Assembly (NCBI GenBank): GCA_016926735.1
Contig: JAFGOA010000085.1
Coordinates: 1 to 14,411, forward strand
Source: Promethearchaeota archaeon
GTDB lineage: Archaea; Asgardarchaeota; Lokiarchaeia; Sigyniarchaeales; SOKP01
Length of the DNA: 14,411 bases
Reading direction: 5' to 3'
The position numbers were made by a program, and so were the translations under genes. Each line of letters starts with the position of its first letter. The first letter of the stretch is position 1. The notes under the pieces are model-generated. The model worked only from the letters and a program-made list of their open reading frames with translations, searched no databases and was not told the origin of the DNA. Shown piece after piece: positions 1 to 14,411 of this stretch.

Positions 1-38
1 ATTCTTTTAAAAATATTATAATCAATAAAATTTTAATT

Positions 39-566
39 ATGTCACCTAAAGAAGAAACTAAAATTGATATTACTGAGGAGGTTTTTAGAGATCCTATTGA
101 AGTGATAAAAAAATTATCGACACATTTATCAATAGCATATACAAAAGTTATCCAAACATATGTAATGGAAGAAAGAAATCTTGATCTGATATTATTAAAA
201 CAAGGTTCATCATATTTTAAAGGTAAAATTGTATGGATAGGAAATAGAAAAGATGATACAGAGGGAACGATATTTTGTGTTGATACCAGATCAGAACTGA
301 AGAAAATTAATCCTACTTCAGAAAATACTGAAAATATAATTCTTGATCTGAAGAAAAATGCAATTTTAATCTCCACAGAAGCAAAAGCAAAATGTTCTGT
401 TTGTGGAAAGAATATAGAGGTTTTTGATGATGTTTCAGGTTGTCCTTTGTGTGGTGCAAAAGCTCATAAAGATCATTTGTTAGATTGGATTAAAATGAAA
501 CATAATTGTCCAGTATGTAAAAAATCTTTAGATCTATCATCAATTGGTCAAATTATTATTGATTAA
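39..566 (+). CDS. RING-finger-like Zn-binding protein (candidate E3 ubiquitin ligase), C-terminal RING variant
   Basis: C-terminus CSVC-x12-CPLC-x4-HKDH-LLDW-x6-CPVC gives eight ligands in RING-like spacing, with the conserved Trp and CPxC. The N-terminal ~115 aa are not recognised. Confidence 0.75.
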   Translation: MSPKEETKIDITEEVFRDPIEVIKKLSTHLSIAYTKVIQTYVMEERNLDLILLKQGSSYFKGKIVWIGNRKDDTEGTIFCVDTRSELKKINPTSENTENIILDLKKNAILISTEAKAKCSVCGKNIEVFDDVSGCPLCGAKAHKDHLLDWIKMKHNCPVCKKSLDLSSIGQIIID

Positions 567-569
567 TGT

Positions 570-1304
570 TTATATTGATTTAAAATCTTCAATAGTGATT
601 GTGCCATCATACAAAGCCGTCCCGATTAAAACACCAGCGAAATCTTTTTCAATTAATTGCCTAATATCATCAATGTCTCGAATACCGCCCCCAACAAAGA
701 TCTTTCCATTAAACCTTCTTTTTATAGTATTATATAATTTTGGAATACCTCCAATTTTCATTCCAACTCTTTTTAAATCTAAGAGAATTATCTTTTCAAC
801 ACCTAAATTATTTATCTGATTGATAAAAGGTAAAATTTTTTTATTTTGAAAATGAGAATTATTAGAAAAAATTCTTTCACCACACATATCTATACTTACT
901 ATTAATTTATTTAATCCTATAATCTCCATACCAGAGGAAATTACTTTGAAATTCCGAATGGTTTCTAATCCAAAAATGAGATTATGAATATTTAATTTTG
1001 AAAATACTTCGATATCTGCTTCATTTTTAATACCAGGATCTAATATTAATTTTATTTTTTGAAGAGAAATTATTTCTTTAATTAATTTAAAGTTTGGACT
1101 ATTATTAACTATAGAATCTAAATCTGCTATATAGAACTTATTAAAATTGAATTTTTTGCTAATTATTTCTATTATTTCTTTTGGTATAGAAGACTTAAAT
1201 AAATAAGATTGAAGAATTTTATATTTTGACCTTTCTCCTCTTATAGCATGAACAGCCTTTGAGTTTAAGATATCTATAACCGGGATAATTTCAAAGTTAT
1301 TCAT
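570..1304 (-). CDS. HisA/HisF-related TIM-barrel protein (methanogen/methylotroph hisAF-related type, probably not true HisA)
   Basis: IIPVIDI..AVHAIRGERSKY, YIADLDSI, DPGI, GLETI, ILLDLKRVG, FVGGGIR and VLIGTALYDG motifs. It lacks the VRLxQG motif of true HisA. Confidence 0.8.
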   Translation of the reverse strand: MNNFEIIPVIDILNSKAVHAIRGERSKYKILQSYLFKSSIPKEIIEIISKKFNFNKFYIADLDSIVNNSPNFKLIKEIISLQKIKLILDPGIKNEADIEVFSKLNIHNLIFGLETIRNFKVISSGMEIIGLNKLIVSIDMCGERIFSNNSHFQNKKILPFINQINNLGVEKIILLDLKRVGMKIGGIPKLYNTIKRRFNGKIFVGGGIRDIDDIRQLIEKDFAGVLIGTALYDGTITIEDFKSI

Positions 1305-1686
1305 TTTTTTTAGAATTTTGTAGAAGATATATAATTAATTTATAGTAAATAATTTGGTTAAGAAATTCTTTCTTTTTAAAAATAGTGGAATAATTATCAA
1401 TATTAATGTAAATACGGGATATAATATCATGACAAAAGCATTCTTAAATTCTATAAATAATGATGGGATATAGAGTTTGGTGTTAAATTCCCCAATTATC
1501 AAAATTTCTTAATAATTTTAAATAAGATTAGCTAAATTATATTATTTTTAATAATATAATATATAAATCATTTAATCAAGACAGACTTTTTTTTTAAAAA
1601 TAATGGAGTTTAATTAACAATTAAATAAATTTATTTATAAGTTATAAAAGCTAGAATCCTTTTTAGAAAATAAAGAAAAAATAAGT

Positions 1687-3414
1687 GTGATTAACATGAA
1701 AATCGATAATTATATAAAAAAGATTATTGAAGAAACTGGGTTAAATAAAATTGATATAGAGAAAATGGTAAGCGAAAAAAAAGAAGAATTAAAAGGATTA
1801 ATTTCTGATGAAGGAGCACTATTTATAATCGCAAAGGAATTAGGAGTAGATGTTAAAGATCAAGATAGTGATTATTTAGAAGATATTGAAATAAATATAT
1901 CTGATATTACATCAAATATGAGAAATATTATACTCATAGGGAGAATAAAAGAAATATATAGAATCAGCGAATTTAATAAAAAAGATGGTAGTATAGGCAA
2001 AGTAGGTTCATTTTTATTAAGTGATAGTTCTGGAGATATTAGAGTTGTATTATGGGATGATAAAACGGAAATCTTAGATAATGCACTTTTTACCCTGAAT
2101 GAATTAGTTAAATTAATAAATGGTTATGCTAAAGAAGGAAAGTATGGAATAGAGGTTCATGTTTCAAACATGGGTAAGATTATTTTATCTCCAAATGATA
2201 TCGATAATAAAAAATATCCAAAAATAAAAAATAATGATACAATTGCAATTAATGAAATTAATCTTACACAAAGATTAATAACTGTAAAGGGTAAAATTAT
2301 TCAAAAAGGTATAATAAATGAATTTAAAAAAAAAGATGGCGCAATAGGAAAAGTAAGTTCAATATTTATTAGAGATCAGACAGATAGTATTCGAATAACA
2401 ATTTGGGACGATAAAACAGAGCAACTTGAAAATATTGAAATAGGGGATGTCATTACAATTACAAACTTGGTTCCTAAACAAAATAAATATGATCCTAATC
2501 AAATTGAATTATCATCATCTTTTAATTCTAAAATCATTAAAGAAAAGGAAATGTTGGACATAAAAGAGGTTATAATAAAAAAAATAAAATATTTACAAGA
2601 AAAGAATAATATTGTTTCTTTTAGAGGAGTTATTTCATCAATTGAAAATTTAAAAAAAATTAATTTAAGATCAGGGGAAGAAGTCTCTCTCTTAAATATA
2701 ATAGTAAGTGATGATACTGATGGTGTAAGGGTAACATTTTGGAAGGATTCCGCAGAGAAATATTCAAAAACACTTAAAATGGGTCAAGGAATTGTATTAA
2801 AAAATGTTGTATTGAGATACAGCGAATTTTACAAAAGAAAAGAGGTAACTTTTACTAAAACATCCCAATTGGAATTTAAAGATTTAGATATTAAAAACTT
2901 GAAAGAGTTAGATCTTAGTGGCATAGGAGATAAGAAATCATCATATACGGGTAATTATACAAATATTAGTGATATTAATTCTCCAGGAATATATGAAATA
3001 AAAGGTATTATTGTTAAAGAACTCTCTAATATTACGATATATGAAGCCTGTACAAAATGTGGAAGGAAAACAAGTAATTGTAATTGTGAAGATGTTGGAG
3101 GAACTGAAAATCGAATGATTTTGAATATAATTATAGATGATGGAACAAGTACAATAAGATGTGTTTTTGTAGCAGAGAATGCTGAGAAAATAATAAACAC
3201 AGATACAACAAGCATTTCAAAAATAATTAACACCCCAGAATATAACACCTTATTAGAAGGGATCTCAAAGGACCTTATTGGTAAGAATCTAATAATAAAA
3301 GGTAAAGCAAAATATAGCGAGTTTTCAAATACCTATGAGATTTCTGTTTTTGATTTTAAAGAATTGAATATAAATGAAGAAATTGAAAGATTAATGGATG
3401 AAATAGATGTTTAA
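1687..3414 (+). CDS. rpa: Replication protein A large subunit (multi-OB-fold ssDNA-binding protein with Zn finger); ATG at 1696 is an alternative start
   Basis: N-terminal helical GLISDEGALFIIAKELGV domain. Three OB repeats (D.SG.IRVVLWD, DQTDSIRITIWD, DDTDGVRVTFWK). A fourth OB has YEACTKCGRK..CNC and DDGTSTIRCVF. Confidence 0.9.
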   Translation: MINMKIDNYIKKIIEETGLNKIDIEKMVSEKKEELKGLISDEGALFIIAKELGVDVKDQDSDYLEDIEINISDITSNMRNIILIGRIKEIYRISEFNKKDGSIGKVGSFLLSDSSGDIRVVLWDDKTEILDNALFTLNELVKLINGYAKEGKYGIEVHVSNMGKIILSPNDIDNKKYPKIKNNDTIAINEINLTQRLITVKGKIIQKGIINEFKKKDGAIGKVSSIFIRDQTDSIRITIWDDKTEQLENIEIGDVITITNLVPKQNKYDPNQIELSSSFNSKIIKEKEMLDIKEVIIKKIKYLQEKNNIVSFRGVISSIENLKKINLRSGEEVSLLNIIVSDDTDGVRVTFWKDSAEKYSKTLKMGQGIVLKNVVLRYSEFYKRKEVTFTKTSQLEFKDLDIKNLKELDLSGIGDKKSSYTGNYTNISDINSPGIYEIKGIIVKELSNITIYEACTKCGRKTSNCNCEDVGGTENRMILNIIIDDGTSTIRCVFVAENAEKIINTDTTSISKIINTPEYNTLLEGISKDLIGKNLIIKGKAKYSEFSNTYEISVFDFKELNINEEIERLMDEIDV

Positions 3415-3426
3415 TTTTACTTTTAA

Positions 3427-3843
3427 TTAATTAATAATGCAGATCTCTTGGAATTTAATAGGATTAACTAATAAATCATTAAAGAGTTCATTTAGATATT
3501 TTATTGACTCAATATCTAATTCTTTATTAAATGGCCATATTCCAACTAATATATCTCCTTTTTTTTTAGAATTCCCAATCAAAATTCCTTGTTTTTTAGC
3601 CTTTAGTGAAAAAAGAATAACATTGTAATAGTTATAATTCGGTTGAGTAGAATTCTTACCAAATTTTATAACTGCTTCAATATTTTGGAAAGTTATAATC
3701 TTTGCATCTTTTTTTTGCCTAAGCTGGTCTAAATAATCAATAGATATCCCTAATTCAGAATTTAATTCAATTTCTTTAAATGTAAGACTTAACTTTTCTT
3801 TTTCAATCTTATTAGAACCCTTAAAAATTACTTTATAAACCAT
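3427..3843 (-). CDS. hypothetical protein (138 aa)
   Basis: ATG-started 138-codon ORF filling the gap between rpa and the tRNA pair; no recognisable motif. Confidence 0.7.
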   Translation of the reverse strand: MVYKVIFKGSNKIEKEKLSLTFKEIELNSELGISIDYLDQLRQKKDAKIITFQNIEAVIKFGKNSTQPNYNYYNVILFSLKAKKQGILIGNSKKKGDILVGIWPFNKELDIESIKYLNELFNDLLVNPIKFQEICIIN

Positions 3844-3935
3844 TTTAATATATAATAATACTTAAATATATTAAAACTTATGATTCAATTTTGTTATCAA
3901 TTCTAAAATATAATAAAATAAGAAAAAAGATAAAG

Positions 3936-4125
3936 CGCCCCCGGCTTTCTCTAATATCTGTAATTCAGATATTATATGGGACTCGTTATGCTCAGATATT
4001 TAGCATAAACTCGAACATGCGACCGCCCGGTTAACTTCCGGAGGTATTATTTGCTTTAATACCTTAGCCGGGTGCTTTTGGCACACCGTTTATGGCGATG
4101 CTCTACCTAACTGAGCTACGGAGGC
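3936..4125 (-). tRNA. trnN: tRNA-Asn(GTT) with four introns (22/23, 33/34, 59/60, 63/64)
   Basis: Exons 4125-4103, 4076-4066, 4035-4010, 3979-3976 and 3945-3936 join to GCCTCCG TA GCTC AGTTAGGTA GAGC A CCCGG CT GTT AA CCGGG CGGTC GCATG TTCGAGC CATGC CGGGGGC G (74 nt, all four stems paired). Introns 4102-4077 (26 nt), 4065-4036, 4009-3980 and 3975-3946 (30 nt each) are hairpins with BHB/BHL geometry. The intron 1 junction is ambiguous by a few nt. CCA is not encoded. Confidence 0.88.
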
Positions 4126-4140
4126 ATACTTATGTTTTTG

Positions 4141-4243
4141 TGCTTCTGCCGGGATTCGAACCCGGGTCACGAGGGTGAAAGCCTCGGATGCATTGTCCTT
4201 AATTATTAATTAATTAAGTTTGGCCGGACTACACTACAGAAGC
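4141..4243 (-). tRNA. trnE: tRNA-Glu(TTC) with one D-arm intron (~21/22)
   Basis: GCTTCTG TA GTGT AGTCCGGCCAA|GCAT C CGAGG CT TTC AC CCTCG TGAC CCGGG TTCGAAT CCCGG CAGAAGC A. The 28-nt intron at 4219-4192 has an 8-bp hairpin (CTTAATTA/TAATTAAG). Anticodon at 4179-4177. Confidence 0.93.
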
Positions 4244-4597
4244 TTATTTTTTTTTTAATCAATATTACTAGTTTTATTAATCTAATATATAATATTAATC
4301 TGTAATATCCTAAATTATCTAGAAATTAAATATTTTTCTATAAAAGTTATTATTTTTTTTATTCAATAAAAGATTAGATATCTTAACTCATAATTCTTTT
4401 ATTTATTGGAATTAGCAAAAAAAAAATAATTAATAAATTTCCGGAAATTTTGATTCTGATAAAGTTAAAATCCAATTATCTAATTAAATTTATACATCAC
4501 ATGAAATACCGTAATAAATAATATATTTTGATAAATCCAATATTATCAATTAAAAAAAGGTCACTAAAAAGAATTAATAGTTAGGAGAGAAGAAAAA

Positions 4598-4701
4598 TGC
4601 GGGAAGGGAGATTTGAACTCCCGAACTCCTTTGAGAATGGATCTCTTCGAGAATTATCTCTTCTAAGTCCACCGCCTTTGACCATACTTGGCAATTCCCG
4701 C
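4598..4701 (-). tRNA. trnL: tRNA-Leu(TAG) with canonical 37/38 intron
   Basis: GCGGGAA acceptor pairs with TTCCCGC plus discriminator A; long variable arm (CTC/GAG stem); GGGAG TTCAAAT CTCCC T-arm. The 19-nt intron at 4661-4643 forms a BHB (CTTA/GAAG helix, bulges GA|A and AG|A, GAGA/TCTC stem). Confidence 0.92.
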
Positions 4702-4908
4702 TTTTTTATACTATAAGTATATAAATATAACTGCTCCAAATTAATTAAATTTACTATTTAATTACTATTGAAAATTATAAGATTAGAATTAAAAAATAAT
4801 TATGTGATTTAATACTATCATTTATTTATTTTTAAAATTTAAAAGAATAAAAATAAAATAAAGGAATAATATTTGTTTTATTAATGGAAAAAAAAAAGAT
4901 GATAAAGA

Positions 4909-5910
4909 TTGAGTGTTAGAGAATCTCTCATAAAACATTTGACATCCATATTAAGATCATCTGAAGGAACTCTTTTAGTAGTTCTATGTGATTTAGATGG
5001 CCTTTCTATAGCAAAAATCGGAAGAAAAAGTGATCTAGATATAAACCCAAACCATATCACTAGTCTTGCTTCGGCTGCATTCTCAACAACTGCAGAAAAT
5101 TGGGACGATTTAGAAATCAACGAACAAGTTGTTTCATTTATCTTCTTTGATAAAGTATGTCTAATCACTATAAAGATCAATCAAACCCTTCTTAATATCG
5201 TACATAATTATAATAAAGATTGGCCCTTGGATGCTGATAATCTAGCAAGTTCAATGTACTATCTAAAACAAAAACTTGGAGAATTTTTTGGAGGAGTACA
5301 TACAACAGAAAAAGAATTAGAAGAGTTCTCAAATAAAGTAAGAAGTGCTATCTATCTTAGTGGTATGGGAACTGATGTTCCTTTCTTATCTTATACGCCA
5401 AAAGAGTATGATTCTACAAATTTTATTACGGGTATAACAACAATTTTAAATTCTATTCAAAATTCAACAATTTTTTTAAGATATTGTCTTGCAGATCCTT
5501 CAGGATTAATGTTAGATGCAAAGGAAAATAGTAATATAAACTTACCTCTTTCGATTGAAGCATTTTCAGCAAATGCAACAGTAGCATTTCAAAAGATGAA
5601 AGAAGAATCATCTCAAGGGAACATGGGAGATCTTTTGTGTTATATTGCAATTTCAGGGGAAAATACGGACAATCTCTATGGTCTTATCACATGTCCTTCA
5701 GGAAGACTAAGTTTTTCAAAAGGAAAGGATAAAAGTAATATAGAAGATATTTCTTTTATTGGTTTATTTAATCTTGATTATGGTGTTATTCCAATTATAG
5801 GTGAAGCAAGAAATATAGTATATTCGATATTAGAAATAATAGGTGTAGAAAAGGTTTCAGAGCATTTTATAAACGCTGCGAATATATTAATGAAGAGTAA
5901 ATACCAATGA
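4909..5910 (+). CDS. Tandem Roadblock/LC7-like (MglB/LAMTOR fold) domain protein
   Basis: Two similar units: VVLCDLDGLSIA..ITSLASAAFSTT and YCLADPSGLMLDA..IEAFSANATVAF, matching the beta-hairpin DxxGL plus helix pattern of Roadblock domains. TTG start. Confidence 0.7.
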   Translation: MSVRESLIKHLTSILRSSEGTLLVVLCDLDGLSIAKIGRKSDLDINPNHITSLASAAFSTTAENWDDLEINEQVVSFIFFDKVCLITIKINQTLLNIVHNYNKDWPLDADNLASSMYYLKQKLGEFFGGVHTTEKELEEFSNKVRSAIYLSGMGTDVPFLSYTPKEYDSTNFITGITTILNSIQNSTIFLRYCLADPSGLMLDAKENSNINLPLSIEAFSANATVAFQKMKEESSQGNMGDLLCYIAISGENTDNLYGLITCPSGRLSFSKGKDKSNIEDISFIGLFNLDYGVIPIIGEARNIVYSILEIIGVEKVSEHFINAANILMKSKYQ

Positions 5911-5931
5911 ATTATAGAAATGGTTTTTTTT

Positions 5932-7491
5932 TTAGATTTCAATTTTTTTTAAATTTAGATTAGATATTTTATTCAAAATATTTTTCCAAAAAAGAACTAG
6001 TTGGAAGGAATAAAAATCATTTTTCCTTTTAATCTGATATTTTATTATTTCTTTAAGGTATTGATAATTTAATTTTAAACATGTAATCAATGACATATTT
6101 TTACTTGGTCTTACTAAAAGCCCAAAAAAATGTTGATTTATATTAAAAATTTTCCACCAATTTTTATAATAAATCTTTGATCCAAATTTTTCTTCAGCAA
6201 TAACATATAATTTTGAACCAATGAATGCCATATATTTAGAAAAGTCTAAATTTACATTATATTTTTCAACTAATGATTGATCACCATATCTTTTTTTAAG
6301 AAAGAAATCTTTTCCTTGTTCTAATGATAAATTATCTTCACCGGGGGTTCCGATCATATAATAAAATATGATTTTGGAATTAATTCTATTGGACTCCATA
6401 ATTAATTTTCTTGTTTTTTCTAAATAGTGATTTATAGTTCTTTGTAATATATTTTTATCTTTAGCAAGGAATTTCTCCATTCTGTATAACATTAATTCAG
6501 AAGTAAAATCCAATCCAAAATGAGGGATAATATCTAATTCTTTATAATGATATAAATCTTTCAAGGTGCAATATTCAATTCTATCATAGACGATTATTTT
6601 TAATGATTTTTTTGTATTTTTCTTATTTATTTTTTTTAGTTCTTTGAAAAATAATTCTCTTTTAGATCTTTTAGGAAGAAAGAACATATCAGTGATGTGG
6701 ATTTGATTAATAGATAACCAGGAAGTTTTTTTTAAAATTTCTATTTCTTTAATACATAATTTTATAGATTTTATTCTTACTTTTTTATAACAAATAGTAG
6801 TTCCGGATGTTCCACAATAGCTACAACGAAAGATACATCCTCTAGAAAAATCAAGATATAATTTATCTATAACATGTTTATATCTTTTAAATAAACCAAA
6901 ATCAATTAATGGAATATCATTAAGATTTTTAACCATTTCTGTTTTAAGAATAATACTTGGTTCTTTCATATTTTTTCTTAGATTTATATTCTTTTCTATT
7001 AATCCTCTTATTAATTTATAAAAGGGTATTTCACCTTCCTCTTTGATTATAAAATCAAAAGGAGTTTCATTTTTTGGATATTCTTCAAAAAAGTAATTGG
7101 GAATATTATTTATATGAAAATCTTCTGGAACTATACTTGGATGTACTCCTCCAACTACAATAAGAGTGTTATGAAAAATTTTTTTTATTAAGAAAGCTAC
7201 TTCAACGGAATTTAAATAATTAAATGATGTATAACAAGAAATAGCAACTAGATCAAAAGGAAATTTATTATATAATTTATTAAGTAATTTTTTAAGAGCA
7301 GCTCTATAGAGATCTATTTTTTCTGGACAAAATTGAGGCAAATTTTCATGTCTTAAATCTAAATATTTCTCTTTAATAGTAAATTTAAATTCTTTATTTT
7401 TTAAATTAAGATAATTAGAGATTCTTGCAAAATTTAATAATAGATGTGAATTTGCCCAAAAAGCAAAAGGATGAATATATAGGATCCTCAT
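5932..7491 (-). CDS. Cobalamin-binding radical SAM protein (class B methylase-like)
   Basis: N-terminal B12-binding domain motifs DLVAISCYTS, VVGGVHPS and EEGEIPF; SRGCIFRCSYC (CxxxCxxC); YMIGTPGE. Confidence 0.88.
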   Translation of the reverse strand: MRILYIHPFAFWANSHLLLNFARISNYLNLKNKEFKFTIKEKYLDLRHENLPQFCPEKIDLYRAALKKLLNKLYNKFPFDLVAISCYTSFNYLNSVEVAFLIKKIFHNTLIVVGGVHPSIVPEDFHINNIPNYFFEEYPKNETPFDFIIKEEGEIPFYKLIRGLIEKNINLRKNMKEPSIILKTEMVKNLNDIPLIDFGLFKRYKHVIDKLYLDFSRGCIFRCSYCGTSGTTICYKKVRIKSIKLCIKEIEILKKTSWLSINQIHITDMFFLPKRSKRELFFKELKKINKKNTKKSLKIIVYDRIEYCTLKDLYHYKELDIIPHFGLDFTSELMLYRMEKFLAKDKNILQRTINHYLEKTRKLIMESNRINSKIIFYYMIGTPGEDNLSLEQGKDFFLKKRYGDQSLVEKYNVNLDFSKYMAFIGSKLYVIAEEKFGSKIYYKNWWKIFNINQHFFGLLVRPSKNMSLITCLKLNYQYLKEIIKYQIKRKNDFYSFQLVLFWKNILNKISNLNLKKIEI

Positions 7492-7611
7492 CTGATTGAT
7501 TTTTTTTTTGATTAAAGATAGTATTTTTTCTTATCTATCTTTAAAAAATTCCCTAAAAATTCAATTATATTAAATTGAAAAAACATTATTAATTATTTTA
7601 ATGTATTAATT

Positions 7612-8100
7612 ATGAATATTGAAAAAGAAAACATAATTCCGATCCCAAAATTATATTGTATAAGATATATTGAGGGGGGGTGTGCAAAAAATAAATGCAC
7701 AGCAGTTAAATTAAAGAATTTAAATTTATTAAAAATAGTAAATAAGATATATGGTTCTTTAAAAAAATCAATCATTCTTAATCCTTTAGCTAAAAAAGAA
7801 ATTTCTTCAAGAGATCGAGAGATTATTTTAAAAAATGGGCTAATTGTAATAGATTGCTCTTGGAAACATTTTTTCACAATAAAAAATTTTGATGAAGATG
7901 TATCTCGTAAATTACCTCCATTAATAGCTGCAAATCCAGTTAATTATGGGAAATGGGAAAAACTAAGTTCTGCAGAAGCACTATCAGCTGCACTTTATAT
8001 TGCAGGATTTAGAGATCATGCTATACTTATCCTTTCAAAATTTTCATGGGGTCGAGAATTCTTTAGAATAAATAATTTTAAGAATAATAGTATATGTTAA
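7612..8100 (+). CDS. tsr3: 16S rRNA aminocarboxypropyltransferase Tsr3
   Basis: KCTAVKL, IDCSW, RKLPPLIAANPVNYGK..KLSSAEALSAAL and FSWGREF are family signatures. Confidence 0.93.
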   Translation: MNIEKENIIPIPKLYCIRYIEGGCAKNKCTAVKLKNLNLLKIVNKIYGSLKKSIILNPLAKKEISSRDREIILKNGLIVIDCSWKHFFTIKNFDEDVSRKLPPLIAANPVNYGKWEKLSSAEALSAALYIAGFRDHAILILSKFSWGREFFRINNFKNNSIC

Positions 8101-8140
8101 CTTAATTCTTTATAAAAAATATAAAAAAAAAGAGAAAGAT

Positions 8141-9742
8141 TTATTCTCCACCTTTAGAAAGTCTTGAAGCAGCTATTACATCATCAATTTTAAGGATCAT
8201 AGTGGCTACTTCTGTAGCAGATAGAATTGCTTGCGTTAGAACAGCTAAAGGTTCAATAACTCCTAATTTAATCATATCATCTGGTTTACCTAAATCAATA
8301 TTAATACCAAATGAGCTTCCTTCTTCAAACTCATGTTTGGATCTTAATTCTACGATTAAATCAATAGGATTAAATCCTGCATTTTCAGCTAAAGTCTTTG
8401 GAATAATTTCTAAAGCATTTGCATACACTTCAATTGCTAATTGTTCTCTTCCTCCAATGGTTCTTGCATAAGTTTTTAGTCTCTTTGCTAATTCGATTTC
8501 TGTTGCTCCACCTCCAGGTAAGATATATGGAACTTCTATAGTAGCTTTAACAACAGATAATGCATCATGAATCATTCTTTCTGCTTCATCAACAACATGT
8601 TCAATACCTGCTCTGATGAGAATACTAACTGTTTTTGGAGATGCACATTCGGATATAAAAATCATGTTATCATTACCAATTTTCTTTTCTTCAACTTTAC
8701 CGGCATATCCAAGGTCTTCTGAAGTAATCTCAAAAATGTTATTTAATATTTTAGCATTTGTAGCTCTAGCTAATTTTTCCATATCAGATTTTTTTACTCT
8801 TCGAACTGCCACAATATTTTCTTTAGCAAGAAAATTTTGTGCTTTATCATCAATACCTTTTTGACAAAAAACAACGTTAGCTCCTATTTCTTTGAGTTTG
8901 ATAACTCGTTTGTTTAACATATTGGTTTCTTCAGCCAAAAATTTATTTATTTGATCAGGAGTTTGAATTTTTATTTCAGCATCAAATTCAGTTTTTTCAA
9001 CTTCTAAAGCAGAATTAATCAATGCTATTTTTGCATTTTTTAGTAATTTAGGCATCATAGGATTTATTATCTCTTTGTCAACTATCATACCATTAATTAT
9101 CTCAGTATCAAGTAGGCTTTTTCCTTCTTTTTTAATTATTTGAAGTTGATCTAAATCAATAAAAACATTCATACCTCTTTTCTCTTTTATTTGAGAAACA
9201 GATTTTACTACAATATTAGCAAAATGACTTTTTGCACTTGATATTAATTTACTATTCATAGAAGTTTCTGCAACTTTTTTCAGGCTATCTATATCATCAA
9301 TTGAAATTTGATTTGCAAGCTTTTGTAAAATCTCTTTACTTTTTACTAATGCTTTCCTATACCCTCGAAAGATAATAGTTGGATGGACTTGTTGTTCCAT
9401 TAATTCTTGAGCCAGATTTAATAATTCTCCTGCAAGAATTACACTTGTTGTTGTTCCATCACCAACTTTTTCATCTTGAGTTTTAGCAACTTCTACAATC
9501 ATTTTAGCAGCAGGATGCTCTACATCAATTGTATCTAAGATAGTTTTTCCATCATTTGTAATAGTGACATCTCCAAGAGAATCAACAATCATTTTATCCA
9601 TTCCCTTTGGGCCTAATGTTGTTTTAACAGATTCGGATACAGCTTTTGCTGCAGAAATGTTATTTTTTTGGGCATCTTTTCCTCTTTTTCTATCAGTCCC
9701 TTCTTTTAAGATAAGTACGGGGACACCAGATAATTGCGCCAT
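8141..9742 (-). CDS. ths: Thermosome (group II chaperonin) subunit
   Basis: [47 protein letters not shown] and MILKIDDVI motifs. Confidence 0.97.
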
Positions 9743-9848
9743 TATTTTATCACTTTTAGTTAATTTATATTCTAATATATATAGATCTCTATGTCATAAA
9801 ATTAAAAAAATTTTCGAAAATATTATATAAATTAGAAAAAAATCTGAT

Positions 9849-11333
9849 CTAAGCAATCAGATCTTGAATTATATTATTTCTCAAAGTATTGGCATTCTGG
9901 ATTTTTTGAATTCTTCTTAAGTATAAATCATAAAATTCTTTTTTTTCAAAATTTAATTGTTTTAGATAATTTTTTACATTTTTAGTTGAAGGAGAACCTT
10001 GACTTATACGTTTATCTAAACAATTCTTTAAATTATGTAAAGATTCGATAATACTTAATGAGCTTATTATATCATTAAACCCATTATCAGATAATACCTT
10101 ACTAATTATAGCACGATCAAATAAATCATTGGGTTTCTTGGAAAGTTTAACTAAATCTCCAACTATCTGATGAGCTAGTCTAAAGGGAATTTTATAATCA
10201 TTAACCAATATTTCTGCAAGGTCTAAAGCTAAAATATAGCTTTCTTCTATAGCTTTTTTCATGTTGTCATTTTTTAATTTGATTGTAGAAAAAATACCAC
10301 ATAATATTTCAATTATTGAAAATATTAAATTAAATGATTCTCTTACAATAGGTTTTAATTCTTGAAAATCTTTAAGATATCCTGAAGGGATTGCTTTTAC
10401 TATAAGTGATGATTTAAAAGAATTTCCGATTATTATAGAAGATTTTGCACGAATTAATTCAAGGGTATCCGGATTTTTCTTTTGAGGCATTACACTCGAT
10501 CCAGAACAAAATTTTCCATCGATATCAATAAAATCAAACTCTTTAGACGCAAAGATAATTAAATCTTCAGAGATTCTGGAAATGTGCAGTGCAAATAATG
10601 ATAATAGATTCAAGATCTCAATAATATAATCTCTGGAGCTGATGGCATCAATAGAATTCTCAATTAATCCATCAAATCCTAATAGCTCTGTTGTTCTTTT
10701 CCTATCAATATTTATACTTGTTCCCCCTATCGCGCATGCACCCAAAGGGTTATTATTAATTCTTTTATAAACTTCATTAATTCTATTCTCAATACGCAAT
10801 ATCTGGGCGATATAATAATTTATAAAATGAGAGAATTGCCCCAATTGTGCCCTTTGAAGATGAGTATATAAGGGGATGTAATTATCTATTGAATTTTTAC
10901 TTAATTTTAACAAAATATCAATAAAATTAAAGATTTTCTCAGATAAAATATTCAATTCATTTCTGAATTTTAATCTTAGATCAACAGAAACTTGATCATT
11001 CCTTGATCTACCAGTATGGATTTTTCCCCCCGCATCCATTCCAATATCTTCAATAACAGTAAACTCAATAAGAGGATGAATATCTTCAAAATCCTCATTG
11101 AGTATGAAATTATTATTAATAATTTTATTTTGTATTTTTTCAAGCGAAACCAGAATTTTCTTTATTTCATCTTTATTTATTATACCCTGTTCAAATAGCA
11201 TTATATTATGAGCTTGAGTCCCTATAATATCTTCTTCTATAATCCATAAATCATCTTTTAAAGAAGATGAAAAATTCAAGATATCTTTACTCATAGATTC
11301 TTTTATTGCACTTCTGTAAAAATCCTTTTTCAA
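9849..11333 (-). CDS. argH: Argininosuccinate lyase
   Basis: EDIH, KIHTGRSRNDQV, PLYTHLQRAQ and the fumarate-lyase signature GSSVMPQKKNPD. TTG start. Confidence 0.96.
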   Translation of the reverse strand: MKKDFYRSAIKESMSKDILNFSSSLKDDLWIIEEDIIGTQAHNIMLFEQGIINKDEIKKILVSLEKIQNKIINNNFILNEDFEDIHPLIEFTVIEDIGMDAGGKIHTGRSRNDQVSVDLRLKFRNELNILSEKIFNFIDILLKLSKNSIDNYIPLYTHLQRAQLGQFSHFINYYIAQILRIENRINEVYKRINNNPLGACAIGGTSINIDRKRTTELLGFDGLIENSIDAISSRDYIIEILNLLSLFALHISRISEDLIIFASKEFDFIDIDGKFCSGSSVMPQKKNPDTLELIRAKSSIIIGNSFKSSLIVKAIPSGYLKDFQELKPIVRESFNLIFSIIEILCGIFSTIKLKNDNMKKAIEESYILALDLAEILVNDYKIPFRLAHQIVGDLVKLSKKPNDLFDRAIISKVLSDNGFNDIISSLSIIESLHNLKNCLDKRISQGSPSTKNVKNYLKQLNFEKKEFYDLYLRRIQKIQNANTLRNNIIQDLIA

Positions 11334-11482
11334 AATATATTCCTTTAAAATGTAATATTAGTGTTTTTAATTTATAATAATGAATTAATACAATTCATAT
11401 AAAATTTTAAATTTTGGTAAATTGCAATATAGAATCAAAAATATAAATAAATTTTAAGGTATTCAATTCTTAGTTATGAAAT

Positions 11483-12694
11483 ATGACTTTATTAATTGGT
11501 ATTATAGGAAAACCAAGTTCTGGAAAATCTACTTTTTTAAACGCTTCTTGTTTAACACATGTAGAAATGAGTGAATTGCCTTTTACAACTATAAAACCGA
11601 ATAAAGGTGTAGCAACTGTAAGAAGTAAATGTGTTTGTAAGGAATTAAATCTAATAGATAACCCTCAAAATTCTTTATGCATAAATGGCGTGAGATTAAT
11701 TCCAATTAATTTATTAGATGTGGCAGGTCTTGTTCCAGATGCTCACAAAGGTAAAGGATTAGGAAATCAATTTTTAAACGATCTAAGTAAAGCAGATATA
11801 CTAATTCATATTATAGATACAACAGGCTCTTTAGATAAAACTGGTAATAGAACTATTTCAGGATCCCATGATCCCTATGAAGATATCTTATTTTTAGAAC
11901 AGGAGATTAATTTATGGTATAAAAAAATTATAGAAAGAGAAGATTGGAATAAATTTACAAGAGCATTTTCAAGAATTCAAAAAGATTTTATTAGAGCATT
12001 AGGTGAGCGTTTGTCTGGATTAAGAATTACCCCATATCATATAAAAAGGGCACTAAAAGATTCTAATTTAGAATCTAAAAATCCTAATGAATGGTCTGAT
12101 GATGATCTATATATTTATTCAAAAATTTTAAGAGAAATATCGAAACCAATAGTTTTAGTTGCAAATAAAATAGATAAAGATAGCAGTATAGAGAATTTAA
12201 AAAAAATAAAAGAAAAAAATAAAAAAGAGATAATTCCATGTAGCGCATTAACTGAATATATTTTAAGGCAATATGAGGAACAAAAAATCATAAGTTATTT
12301 GCCAGGATCACCGAGTTTTGAAATATTAAAACCAGAAAAACTAAATCCAAAAGAATTAGAAACATTAGACAAAATAAAAGAAAAAATTCTGCAAGAATTT
12401 GGAGGTACTGGGATTCAAAAAGTCTTTAAATATGCAATTTTTGATATATTAGAACAAATTTGTGTCTATCCAGTCTCAGATATAAATAAATTTACAGATA
12501 ATAATAATAATGTATTACCAGACGTTTTCTTGATAAAAAAAGGAACAAAATTAATTGATTTTGTGAGAGATAAGATACATAGTGACTTAGCAGATCATTT
12601 TATTCATGGAATAGATGCCAAAACTAAGAAAAGATTAGGAGAAAATTATGAATTATCTCATAATGATATTATTAAGATTGTCTCTGCAAAATAA
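11483..12694 (+). CDS. ychF: Obg-family YchF/Ola1-like NTPase, archaeal type, with C-terminal TGS domain
   Basis: GKPSSGKST (G1), PFTTIKPN (G2), DVAGLVPDAHKGKGLGNQFL (G3), NKID (G4) and IHSDLA..DIIKIV (TGS). Confidence 0.93.
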   Translation: MTLLIGIIGKPSSGKSTFLNASCLTHVEMSELPFTTIKPNKGVATVRSKCVCKELNLIDNPQNSLCINGVRLIPINLLDVAGLVPDAHKGKGLGNQFLNDLSKADILIHIIDTTGSLDKTGNRTISGSHDPYEDILFLEQEINLWYKKIIEREDWNKFTRAFSRIQKDFIRALGERLSGLRITPYHIKRALKDSNLESKNPNEWSDDDLYIYSKILREISKPIVLVANKIDKDSSIENLKKIKEKNKKEIIPCSALTEYILRQYEEQKIISYLPGSPSFEILKPEKLNPKELETLDKIKEKILQEFGGTGIQKVFKYAIFDILEQICVYPVSDINKFTDNNNNVLPDVFLIKKGTKLIDFVRDKIHSDLADHFIHGIDAKTKKRLGENYELSHNDIIKIVSAK

Positions 12695-12704
12695 TGAATA
12701 ATCT

Positions 12705-12803
12705 CTATTCTTCTTTTGAGGTAAGAAGAATATAAACTAAAATGACAATTAACAATATAATACCTAAGAACGTAAGACTAAATCGAAACAATTCCTCATC
12801 CAA
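12705..12803 (-). CDS. Putative 32-aa single-transmembrane small protein (absent from the ORF track)
   Basis: TTG start 6 nt after AGGTGAGG, which is complementary to the 16S 3' tail seen in this window. Translation: MDEELFRFSLTFLGIILLIVILVYILLTSKEE*. Confidence 0.55.
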   Translation of the reverse strand: MDEELFRFSLTFLGIILLIVILVYILLTSKEE

Positions 12804-12983
12804 TTTAGTCCTCACCTTGAAATTTTTGTTTCATTTTTGATATTTTTCATTATTAATAGTTTTATAGATCTTATTGTGAAGAATATTAAAAATAGTTATT
12901 TATTTTTTCTTCTATAAATCATTGATATTGTCCTATTTTAATGACAAATTTTATTTTAAGTTAATGGTATTAGTACTCTTCTT

Positions 12984-13289
12984 TTAGGGAGGTGGTGGAA
13001 TCAAATCATATATTATATCCATGATTATTGGATATCCTAAGGCATAAGTAATGATCATACCACCAATAGCTATAATAAAAGCGAGAATTGGTTTCCATTT
13101 CTGTTCAGTTTCATTCCATCCCAAGGCACCAATTATAATTGTTAATAATGCCATTCCACTAACAATAAAAACACCAAATGCACCTTCTCTTGGTATTATC
13201 TCCATAAAAGCTAGAACACATAATAATGGACCAATTAAACTTATTATTGCTAAAAGAAGAGCAATGTTAGCATATTTAGCTTTTTCCAT
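12984..13289 (-). CDS. Small integral membrane protein (~3 TM helices), function unknown
   Basis: 101 aa with three hydrophobic segments and a C-terminal PPPP. Confidence 0.75.
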   Translation of the reverse strand: MEKAKYANIALLLAIISLIGPLLCVLAFMEIIPREGAFGVFIVSGMALLTIIIGALGWNETEQKWKPILAFIIAIGGMIITYALGYPIIMDIIYDLIPPPP

Positions 13290-13526
13290 ATCAATAAATC
13301 TCTTTTTAGTTATTTTTTTATCATAACATGAAATATATATATTTTAAATTTATGGTAATTCTTAAAAATATATCTTAAATAATCACATTAGATAGACTTT
13401 AGTTATCTAATCTAAATATATAGAAAAACAAGAGGGTCAATATATAAATCCTTATTAAAATTTATCTATTGCGTATGAACCCTGGAGAGGTAATAATGAA
13501 TCAATAAGTAAGTATGTTACATATAG

Positions 13527-13673
13527 GGTAAACGAGTCAAATGAGGATTATTTCAATCATAAAGAGAAGTTAAAATCAATGTAGATGTAAATGGAGCAAT
13601 GAATATTTTAAGAAAAGTAGTTCCCATAGCCTTCAATGATAAGGAAATAGAAGTGATGGTATTATCGCCTTGA
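13527..13673 (+). pseudogene. tnpB: Decayed IS200/IS605-family tnpB C-terminal fragment
   Basis: One frame reads GKRVK*GLFQS*REVKINVDVNGAMNILRKVVPIAF..P*. This matches the TnpB C-terminal pattern GKRxKRGLF...INADxNGAxNILRK (RuvC-III region), with two in-frame stops. Confidence 0.8.
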
Positions 13674-13781
13674 ACTGCTTAAATATGTTAGTTTTGTTAT
13701 AATTTTATATAATTCTAAATAGAACTCTATAAGCTATATTAGTGCTAATAAAATAAACTAGTTGATTTAAATAAATAATAA

Positions 13782-13914
13782 TGGACCTGACGGGAATTGA
13801 ACCCGTGACCTCTTGAGTGCAATTCTTGCATAAAGTGCTTTACTTTTTCTGTGTCAAGCGATTTTGAATCAAAACCTTTCAATAGGTCAAAATCTTCCAC
13901 TGATCTACAGGCCC
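13782..13914 (-). tRNA. trnA: tRNA-Ala(TGC) with two introns (22/23 and 32/33)
   Basis: Mature GGGCCTG TA GATC AGTGGAA GATC G CTTGA CT TGC AC TCAAG AGGTC ACGGG TTCAATT CCCGT CAGGTCC A (72 nt) with the G3:U70 Ala identity pair. Introns are 13893-13863 (31 nt, helix TGGA/TTCA) and 13852-13823 (30 nt, helix CTTG/CAAG). Confidence 0.92.
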
Positions 13915-14009
13915 ACAGTATATGTGGATAAATAATTAAAAGATATAATATTAATAATTTTTTCTTTTTTTTGAGGATAATAAATTGTAAGAACTAGAAA
14001 ATATAAAAA

Positions 14010-14411
<402 letters not shown>

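Follow-up and report, generated by a model that had tools for sequence, protein, structure and literature searches.

Transfer RNA (tRNA) genes with non-canonical and multiple introns, and with intron transposition, have been described in Thermoproteales (Sugahara 2008 and Fujishima 2010, as cited in the available text of bioRxiv 10.64898/2026.10.13.758758). Among Asgard archaea, Valentin-Alvarado et al. 2024 (PMC11291895) reported, for three genomes of Atabeyarchaeia and Freyarchaeia, that 92-95% of the tRNA genes contain introns, with over half of the genes multi-intron and many introns non-canonical. The preprint cited above, dated October 2026, presents a motif-free census of 90 Asgard genomes, giving a per-gene figure of 2.2 intervening sequences for three focal families and 0.91 for other families, median lengths of 22-23 nucleotides (nt), repeated gains, an enrichment of bulge-helix-bulge (BHB) motifs, and two paralogues of the splicing endonuclease EndA in 44 of 60 genomes. 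Kaneta et al. 2018 (PMC5829648) have also stated that Asgard archaea carry the L1-loop type of EndA. Both heavily interrupted Asgard tRNA genes and an (alpha-beta)2 EndA from Asgard archaea are already in print. We analysed a stretch of 14,411 nt (the window), positions 1 to 14,411 of the forward strand of contig JAFGOA010000085.1 from a Promethearchaeota archaeon (GenBank assembly GCA_016926735.1), which is contig C116 of a 3.88-Mb genome in 238 contigs (G000; G+C 26.2%). Four tRNA genes lie in the window, all on the minus strand and all interrupted, with eight introns in total. The best explanation overall, to which we assign a probability of about 0.85, is that these are genuine archaeal protein-spliced BHB tRNA introns of a Promethearchaeia (Lokiarchaeia-type Asgard) chromosome.

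Each splicing motif was described by three helices. The central helix H pairs four exon bases with four intron bases, the exon block stopping 2 nt short of the 5' cut and the intron block 2 nt short of the 3' cut. The helix h' lies within the intron, and h is a helix between the two exons; two canonical Leu introns conform to this layout. All coordinates in this paragraph are on the minus strand. tRNA-Leu(TAG), a class II gene of 104 nt (4598..4701), was matched by Rfam RF00005 at 44.9 bits and returns to a cloverleaf once 19 nt are removed; the 19 nt are a canonical intron at 37/38 (4643..4661) with three of four central pairs, an h' of 4 base pairs (bp) and an h of 6 bp. tRNA-Glu(TTC), 103 nt long (4141..4243; Rfam 52.9 bits, with a 36-nt D-loop insert), carries a non-canonical D-loop intron of 28 nt at 21/22 (4192..4219), in which a relaxed motif with two of four central pairs is accompanied by an 8-bp intron hairpin. 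Directly downstream, tRNA-Asn(GTT) spans 190 nt (3936..4125) and holds four introns, which were read from the sequence and recovered by a cloverleaf parser with a score of 33.6. Intron 1, of 26 nt, lies in the D-arm at 22/23 (4077..4102; bulges AG/A and AA/A, three of four central pairs, h' 6 bp). Intron 2, of 30 nt, lies in the anticodon loop at 33/34 (4036..4065; four of four, h' 8 bp), intron 3, of 30 nt, in the T-loop at 59/60 (3980..4009; four of four, h' 7 bp, h 3 bp), and intron 4, again of 30 nt, in the T-stem at 63/64 (3946..3975; three of four, h' 9 bp). tRNA-Ala(TGC), 133 nt long (13782..13914; Rfam 40.7 bits, with two inserts), was parsed with a 31-nt D-arm intron at 22/23 (13863..13893; bulges AG/A and AA/A) and a 30-nt anticodon-loop intron at 32/33 (13823..13852), each with four of four central pairs. 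The site of the first Ala intron is ambiguous between 22/23 and a position up to 2 nt further 3', the spliced product being identical.

Gene parsing reproduced exactly the intron lengths given by an earlier reading of the letters without database searches (the sequence-only reading), namely 19 nt in Leu, 28 nt in Glu, 26, 30, 30 and 30 nt in Asn, and 31 and 30 nt in Ala. The other regularities it had listed were recovered as well: seven of the eight introns begin with A, five end in AA, and the bulges at 22/23 are identical in Asn and Ala. Standard annotation fared less well on these genes. ARAGORN at default settings returned no tRNA in the window and, with introns allowed, mis-assigned most interrupted genes (Ser genes, for example, were labelled Ala), while Rfam detected three of the four window genes and missed the four-intron Asn gene.

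A motif-independent check was made on syntenic loci from public genomes, anchored on the thermosome gene. The 14 closest loci (69-98% protein identity) are titled Promethearchaeota or Promethearchaeia metagenome-assembled genomes (MAGs) or 'uncultured archaeon'; a taxonomy look-up gives Promethearchaeia as a class of the Asgard phylum, and the titles bear out an Asgard host, as had been claimed. The Leu-Glu-Asn cluster and the 16S-linked Ala gene are shared with these loci. All eight window introns are insertions relative to compact orthologs at related syntenic loci. Leu(TAG) is compact in seven of them and keeps the 19-nt intron in L036 and L037. The compact Glu gene of L047 is 75 nt long and its missing part is exactly the 28-nt stretch, so that the boundary is fixed. 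The Asn ortholog of L044 has none of the four introns, and its T-loop fixed intron 3 at 59/60. The Ala ortholog of L038 has neither Ala intron; intron 1 is also missing from L041, and intron 2 occurs in L036 and L041. Compared with the nearest relatives, exons show 92-100% identity, whereas the intron loops diverge. Once the eight stretches are removed, the cloverleaves score 31-33.6 on our own scale, equal to intron-free genes.

The relatives were also surveyed for introns. Applied to 13 related loci, the parser solved 27 of the 31 tRNA clusters there, yielding 8 intron-free genes and 19 interrupted genes with 27 introns. Two of these introns are canonical 19-nt Leu introns; the other 25 range from 21 to 47 nt, with 19 at 27-33 nt and five at exactly 30 nt. 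Leu(TAG) occurs in three states across the relatives, compact, with the canonical intron, and with a D-arm intron. The Asn 22/23 site is occupied in L036, L037, L038, L045 and L047 as well, by introns of 21-34 nt, and the Glu D-loop intron varies between 21 and 32 nt. A 'lineage-wide proliferation', as the introns had been described, therefore does not stand as a single event, because the same genes are intron-free or differently interrupted in related MAGs; the pattern points to repeated gains or losses instead of one burst. Repeated gains are also the conclusion reached for other Asgard classes in the available text of the preprint (bioRxiv 10.64898/2026.10.13.758758). Two further genomes, G010 (same family; 100% complete) and the single-contig G032 (same order; 93% complete), have 25 Rfam-detectable tRNA genes each, which suggests that introns conceal roughly half of the tRNA genes in these genomes as well.

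The census was then taken across the genome. A whole-genome Rfam scan gave 49 tRNA matches, and an nhmmer profile of dispersed mature tRNAs exposed many further exon fragments; GC-rich islands, tried as a pre-filter, numbered 1489 and were too unspecific. Genes were solved with a cloverleaf parser that permitted introns anywhere, with intron searches permitting 10-70 nt, and five genes were solved by eye. Anticodon-loop placement by the parser was unreliable for Tyr, Met, Leu-CAA and Leu-GAG, the first three of which were parsed by eye. Among 41 dispersed tRNA genes, 34 are interrupted and seven are intron-free (Gln-TTG, Ile-GAT, Lys-TTT, Val-GAC, Val-TAC, Gly-CCC and Ala-GGC). At least 13 of the interrupted genes contain two or more introns, and at least 18 dispersed genes are invisible to the whole-genome Rfam scan. 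The resulting catalogue comprises 49 introns in 34 genes, which puts the load at about 1.2-1.4 introns for each dispersed gene; the mean G+C of the introns is 27%. When dense arrays are included, 35 of at least 67 tRNA genes are interrupted and 32 are intron-free, 25 of the latter in the arrays. The sequence-only reading had stated that broadly distributed intron lengths together with mostly intron-free tRNAs elsewhere would tell against its view. That expectation was borne out by half: intron-free genes are common, as these counts show, yet most dispersed genes are interrupted and the lengths are narrow.

Motif statistics were taken for the window and for the catalogue. In the window, four introns have all four central pairs, three have three and the Glu intron has two, and every one of the eight has a flanking helix, either an h' of 2-9 bp or a 6-bp h. 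In the catalogue, four of four pairs were found in 31 of 49 introns and three of four in 15, hence at least three in 46. A control with stretches of unchanged length shifted by 7-25 nt (n = 1862) gave four of four in 2% and three of four in 14%. Two genes carry motifs that depend on a neighbouring intron. In Asn, intron 4 draws on the last 2 nt of intron 3 for its central helix (window 3946-4009), so the motif exists in the unspliced precursor only. In Leu-CAA (G000 C130:5186-5340), by eye, the canonical BHB reaches four of four only with the 30-nt intron at 32/33 out. Both dependencies would constrain the order of cuts.

Two genes with both EndA domains (PF02778 and PF01974) were found, on C33 and C100. 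The C33 protein (alpha, 203 amino acids) aligns over its full length to the A. pernix catalytic subunit 3P1Z_B (E 7e-36) and retains Y, H and K opposite Y125, H133 and K164, as well as R157 and W183. Its Crenarchaea-specific loop aligns without gaps, with SKPR opposite EKPR, so that K44 and R46 are kept. In A. pernix EndA, K44A abolishes D-loop intron cleavage and the loop grafted on a narrow enzyme broadens specificity (Hirata et al. 2011, PMC3241643); the roles of catalytic and loop residues used here were taken from the available text of that paper. The C100 protein (beta, 202 amino acids), aligned with 1A79 and 5X89, has Phe and Ser where these have Tyr and His and keeps the Lys, as would be expected of a non-catalytic structural subunit. 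It is nearer to the M. kandleri (E 2e-23) and M. jannaschii (E 5e-17) sequences than to the crenarchaeal structural subunit 3P1Z_A (E 0.0035). A broad-specificity EndA had been called for in the sequence-only reading, and the classification agrees with it, giving a predicted catalytic subunit with the Crenarchaea-specific loop and a putative non-catalytic paralogue, that is, probably an (alpha-beta)2 enzyme.

Together with the motifs, these genes are consistent with the following route. The genes would be transcribed with the introns included. The last intron bases would then pair with the exon just upstream, forming a 4-bp helix between two 3-nt bulges, and an intron-internal, usually AT-rich hairpin would prop the motif in its relaxed HBh' form. 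[quoted passage not shown]

Intron length differs between the two classes of site. The nine introns at 37/38 measure 17, 19, 19, 19, 20, 24, 29, 43 and 47 nt. Among the 40 non-canonical introns, 22 are exactly 30 nt and 33 fall within 28-32 nt, the rest being 22, 24, 26, 27, 33, 33 and 47 nt; 27 begin with A and 23 end in AA. This clustering is beyond chance, and the narrow size class noticed in the window holds genome-wide, with the relatives somewhat broader. The class spans D-arm, anticodon arm, variable region and T-arm; in the T-loop (58-60), introns occur in 12 genes and all are 30-32 nt long. A motif-free brute-force search that allowed 10-69 nt found eight single non-canonical introns, of 28, 28, 28, 30, 30, 30, 30 and 30 nt. 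tRNA-His has two introns, of 30 and 29 nt according to the parser. A 29-nt intron at 37/38 with a weak BHB was seen in tRNA-Thr(GGT) (G000 C166:4106-4207, minus strand), a gene with an unusual T-loop that has no TTC.

As the favoured reading, the 30-nt class would be set by a floor and a ceiling. A stable intron-internal hairpin would be needed in very AT-rich RNA, which would give the floor, and deletion pressure would give the ceiling. The hairpin floor fits the contrast between the classes, since canonical introns rely on the anticodon stem for an h of 5-7 bp and mostly measure 17-24 nt, whereas non-canonical introns are often without an exon helix. An alternative is that the length records arrival: a unit-length hairpin of about 30 nt would have been inserted or copied, for example via the universally conserved T-loop, and not trimmed by selection. 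The T-loop introns speak for it, since length is equal at every position and these introns keep 30-32 nt although they have a 5-bp exon helix. So does sequence similarity between introns of different isotypes. The 30-nt introns at 58/59 of Lys-CTT (C8:2831-2945) and Arg-CCT (C227:834-940; gene ends approximate) share 87% identity, where 30 shuffles reached 0.80 at most; Arg-GCG has an intron at this site that matches both at 73-77%, Val and Phe introns match each other at 73%, and 23 pairs reach at least 70% identity where shuffles gave a mean of 9.6 (maximum 16). The Lys-CTT/Arg-CCT pair is the sole cross-isotype pair at 80% or more among 1176, however, and the only one to beat every shuffle; the remaining introns have no recognisable common sequence, and transposing intron families of the Thermoproteales type were not seen among these pairs. 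Orthologous introns also vary at one site, from 21 to 34 nt at Asn 22/23 and from 21 to 32 nt in the Glu D-loop as given above, so that length drifts after insertion. For other Asgard classes, no general copying route appears in the available text of the preprint (bioRxiv 10.64898/2026.10.13.758758). We consider arrival at unit length unlikely, and retain the hairpin floor with deletion pressure as the reading to prefer.

The positions of the introns bear on a further proposal, already raised in the sequence-only reading, that introns persist by breaking up integrase attachment (att) sites and so shield tRNA genes from integrating elements. The T-loop introns in 12 genes and those in the anticodon arm do lie in regions that integrases commonly use according to the hypothesis cited there, and one contig shows an att-like feature, the only one seen. 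C96 (5244 nt) carries three copies of a tRNA(CAT) 3' half that has no interruption between position 30 and the 3' end. The copies run from the anticodon loop to the 3' end (1226-1291, 2767-2808 and 4610-4654, minus strand) and flank cargo genes that stand singly, one for an AAA_14/DUF4143 ATPase and one for a YhcG-type PDDEXK nuclease. No full 5' half of this tRNA(CAT) was found, and the arrangement has the look of insertions made repeatedly at the 3' half of a tRNA. C96 is one anecdote, however. Genome-wide there is one Phage_integrase match (PF00589, tyrosine recombinase), on C228, a contig that bears no catalogued tRNA gene, and no integrated element was seen beside any tRNA gene examined. 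Protection of att sites finds no support in this genome and is given only a slim chance.

The genome carries a second set of tRNA genes in dense arrays. Two arrays lie on C157 (7086-8394, minus strand, and 12331-13605, plus strand) with 11 and 10 tRNA genes, and one on C42 (7266-7742, minus strand) has five class II tRNA genes. Together they comprise 26 genes covering all 20 amino acids, of which 25 are intron-free; the array Phe-GAA gene has a 28-nt BHB intron at 32/33. Array genes are 53-70% identical to dispersed genes of the same anticodon, and their G+C is 49% against 58%. Contamination or a virus was considered as their source and rejected: the array contigs have genome-typical GC, genes for Arf/Ras GTPases, LRR and WD40 proteins flank the arrays, and the arrays recur in the congeners G003 (94% identity) and G001 (72-87%). 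A comparison of the array region with phage records gave no meaningful match, only one 69-nt hit. No dense array was seen in G010 or G032, whose 25 Rfam matches each are dispersed. According to the available text of a 2019 survey, archaeal tRNA clusters occur in Euryarchaeota only (PMC6333295), and this divergent 26-gene set, conserved in the genus, is apparently unreported.

The arrays raise the question of which genes supply the cell. If the interrupted dispersed genes were decaying or silent copies and working tRNAs came from the arrays, efficient splicing would not be needed. Complete coverage of the amino acids by almost entirely intron-free arrays, their conservation in G001 and G003, and the lack of cover of the stretch in two metatranscriptome contig sets (from the same study as the best DNA source) all accord with such a division. 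Decay is hard to reconcile with the exons of the interrupted genes, which keep full cloverleaves (29-33.6) and GC-rich stems, with BHB motifs that are maintained, and with conservation of the interrupted genes across genera without arrays (G010 and G032). Several isoacceptors, moreover, come from dispersed genes only, for example Ala-GGC/CGC, Ser-GGA/CGA, Thr-CGT/GGT, Leu-CAG and Glu-CTC, and the array Phe-GAA gene is itself interrupted. We regard silent copies as very improbable and continue to read the dispersed genes as probably spliced.

Several observations nevertheless weigh against genuine protein-spliced BHB introns, or against the account of their length given here. Because the genus carries the complete intron-free arrayed set, it is not proven that the interrupted genes are the ones at work. 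No RNA run was found to contain the stretch, and the two metatranscriptome contig sets are silent on it; in two DNA sets compared with it, the only matching joints belonged to other organisms (85% likeness) and were set aside. RtcB (PF01139) was not found in this 99%-complete assembly; the gene is present in 29 of 30 relatives, including three of three congeners, and the assembly is in 238 contigs, so that a gap in the assembly is the probable reason. The Glu intron forms no more than two of the four central pairs. The motif statistics are partly circular, since about half of the catalogue came from a parser that demands a BHB-like boundary, although lengths are set by the cloverleaf and not by this filter. 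Four non-canonical calls (27, 29, 33 and 47 nt) lie at 38/39 or adjoining, in the 3' anticodon stem, and may actually be canonical. The 30-nt length of T-loop introns that have a 5-bp exon helix is not predicted by hairpin stability alone. Several genes, finally, are only partly solved, and about 62 extra nt of the Phe D-arm on C192, the Leu-TAA 5' half, Leu-GAG, and fragments on C96, C62 and C79 stay outside the catalogue, together with a fragment on C8.

The genes that surround the four tRNA genes in the window are housekeeping genes of an ordinary archaeal kind, with some Asgard character (multi-OB RPA, roadblock-like, RING finger, thermosome). Eukaryote-like genes stand beside the tRNA genes at 39-566, 1687-3414 and 4909-5910, encoding RING-finger, multi-OB RPA-like and roadblock/LC7-like proteins, the last a weak MAPKK1_Int match. 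The 3' end of an archaeal 16S rRNA gene lies at 14011..14411 on the minus strand (Rfam RF01959, 362 bits, model positions 1077-1478), and the Ala(TGC) gene sits 97 nt downstream of it. Rfam detected no 23S rRNA in the window; beyond Ala, AT-rich non-coding DNA extends for about 490 nt and is followed by protein-coding frames (region 13300-14411). The 16S and 23S genes therefore appear unlinked.

These results extend the pattern of heavily interrupted Asgard tRNA genes to a Lokiarchaeia-type family and show that standard tools badly under-call tRNAs in this genome. Worth following up are the position-independent 30-nt mode outside 37/38, the T-loop (58-60) hot spot and the arrays. The wider proposal, that a unit-length class of about 30 nt at any position records the mode of arrival while the same genus keeps an intron-free back-up set of 26 array genes, is put forward as a doubtful one. 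If the unit-length class were real, it would offer a handle on how archaeal tRNA introns are gained; a length that reflects the insertion mechanism would bear on intron gain, a question left open in the available text of the 2026 preprint. In the literature searched, no statement was found on a 30-nt class or on intron lengths in Promethearchaeia or Lokiarchaeia, the supplementary length tables of PMC11291895 and of the preprint lying outside that search.

Compared with known systems, the predicted enzyme resembles the A. pernix (alpha-beta)2 EndA (3P1Z) in its catalytic triad, its loop Lys and the presence of a second, non-catalytic paralogue, here known from sequence; it differs in a beta subunit that is full length (202 amino acids) and nearer to M. 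kandleri and M. jannaschii sequences. With Thermoproteales the genome shares relaxed BHB introns that occupy many positions and can number several in one gene, and, as predicted here, an (alpha-beta)2 EndA, as far as these are described in the available text. In contrast to the intron transposition of that group, one related cross-isotype pair (Lys-CTT/Arg-CCT) was found here among 49 introns. The likeness to heavily interrupted Asgard tRNA sets extends to multiple BHB introns per gene in the D-arm, anticodon arm, variable region and T-arm, to genes missed by standard annotators (here Asn and at least 18 more), to presence and absence that vary among relatives, and to two EndA paralogues. Relative to the preprint, the class here is Promethearchaeia, and the preprint's main text contains neither 'Lokiarchae' nor 'Promethearchae'. 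Non-canonical introns have a sharp 30-nt mode here where the available text gives a median of 22-23 nt, and the load is about 1.2-1.4 introns per dispersed gene as against 2.2 in the focal families there. Unlike the other heavily interrupted Asgard sets, the genus described here also carries intron-free tRNA arrays.

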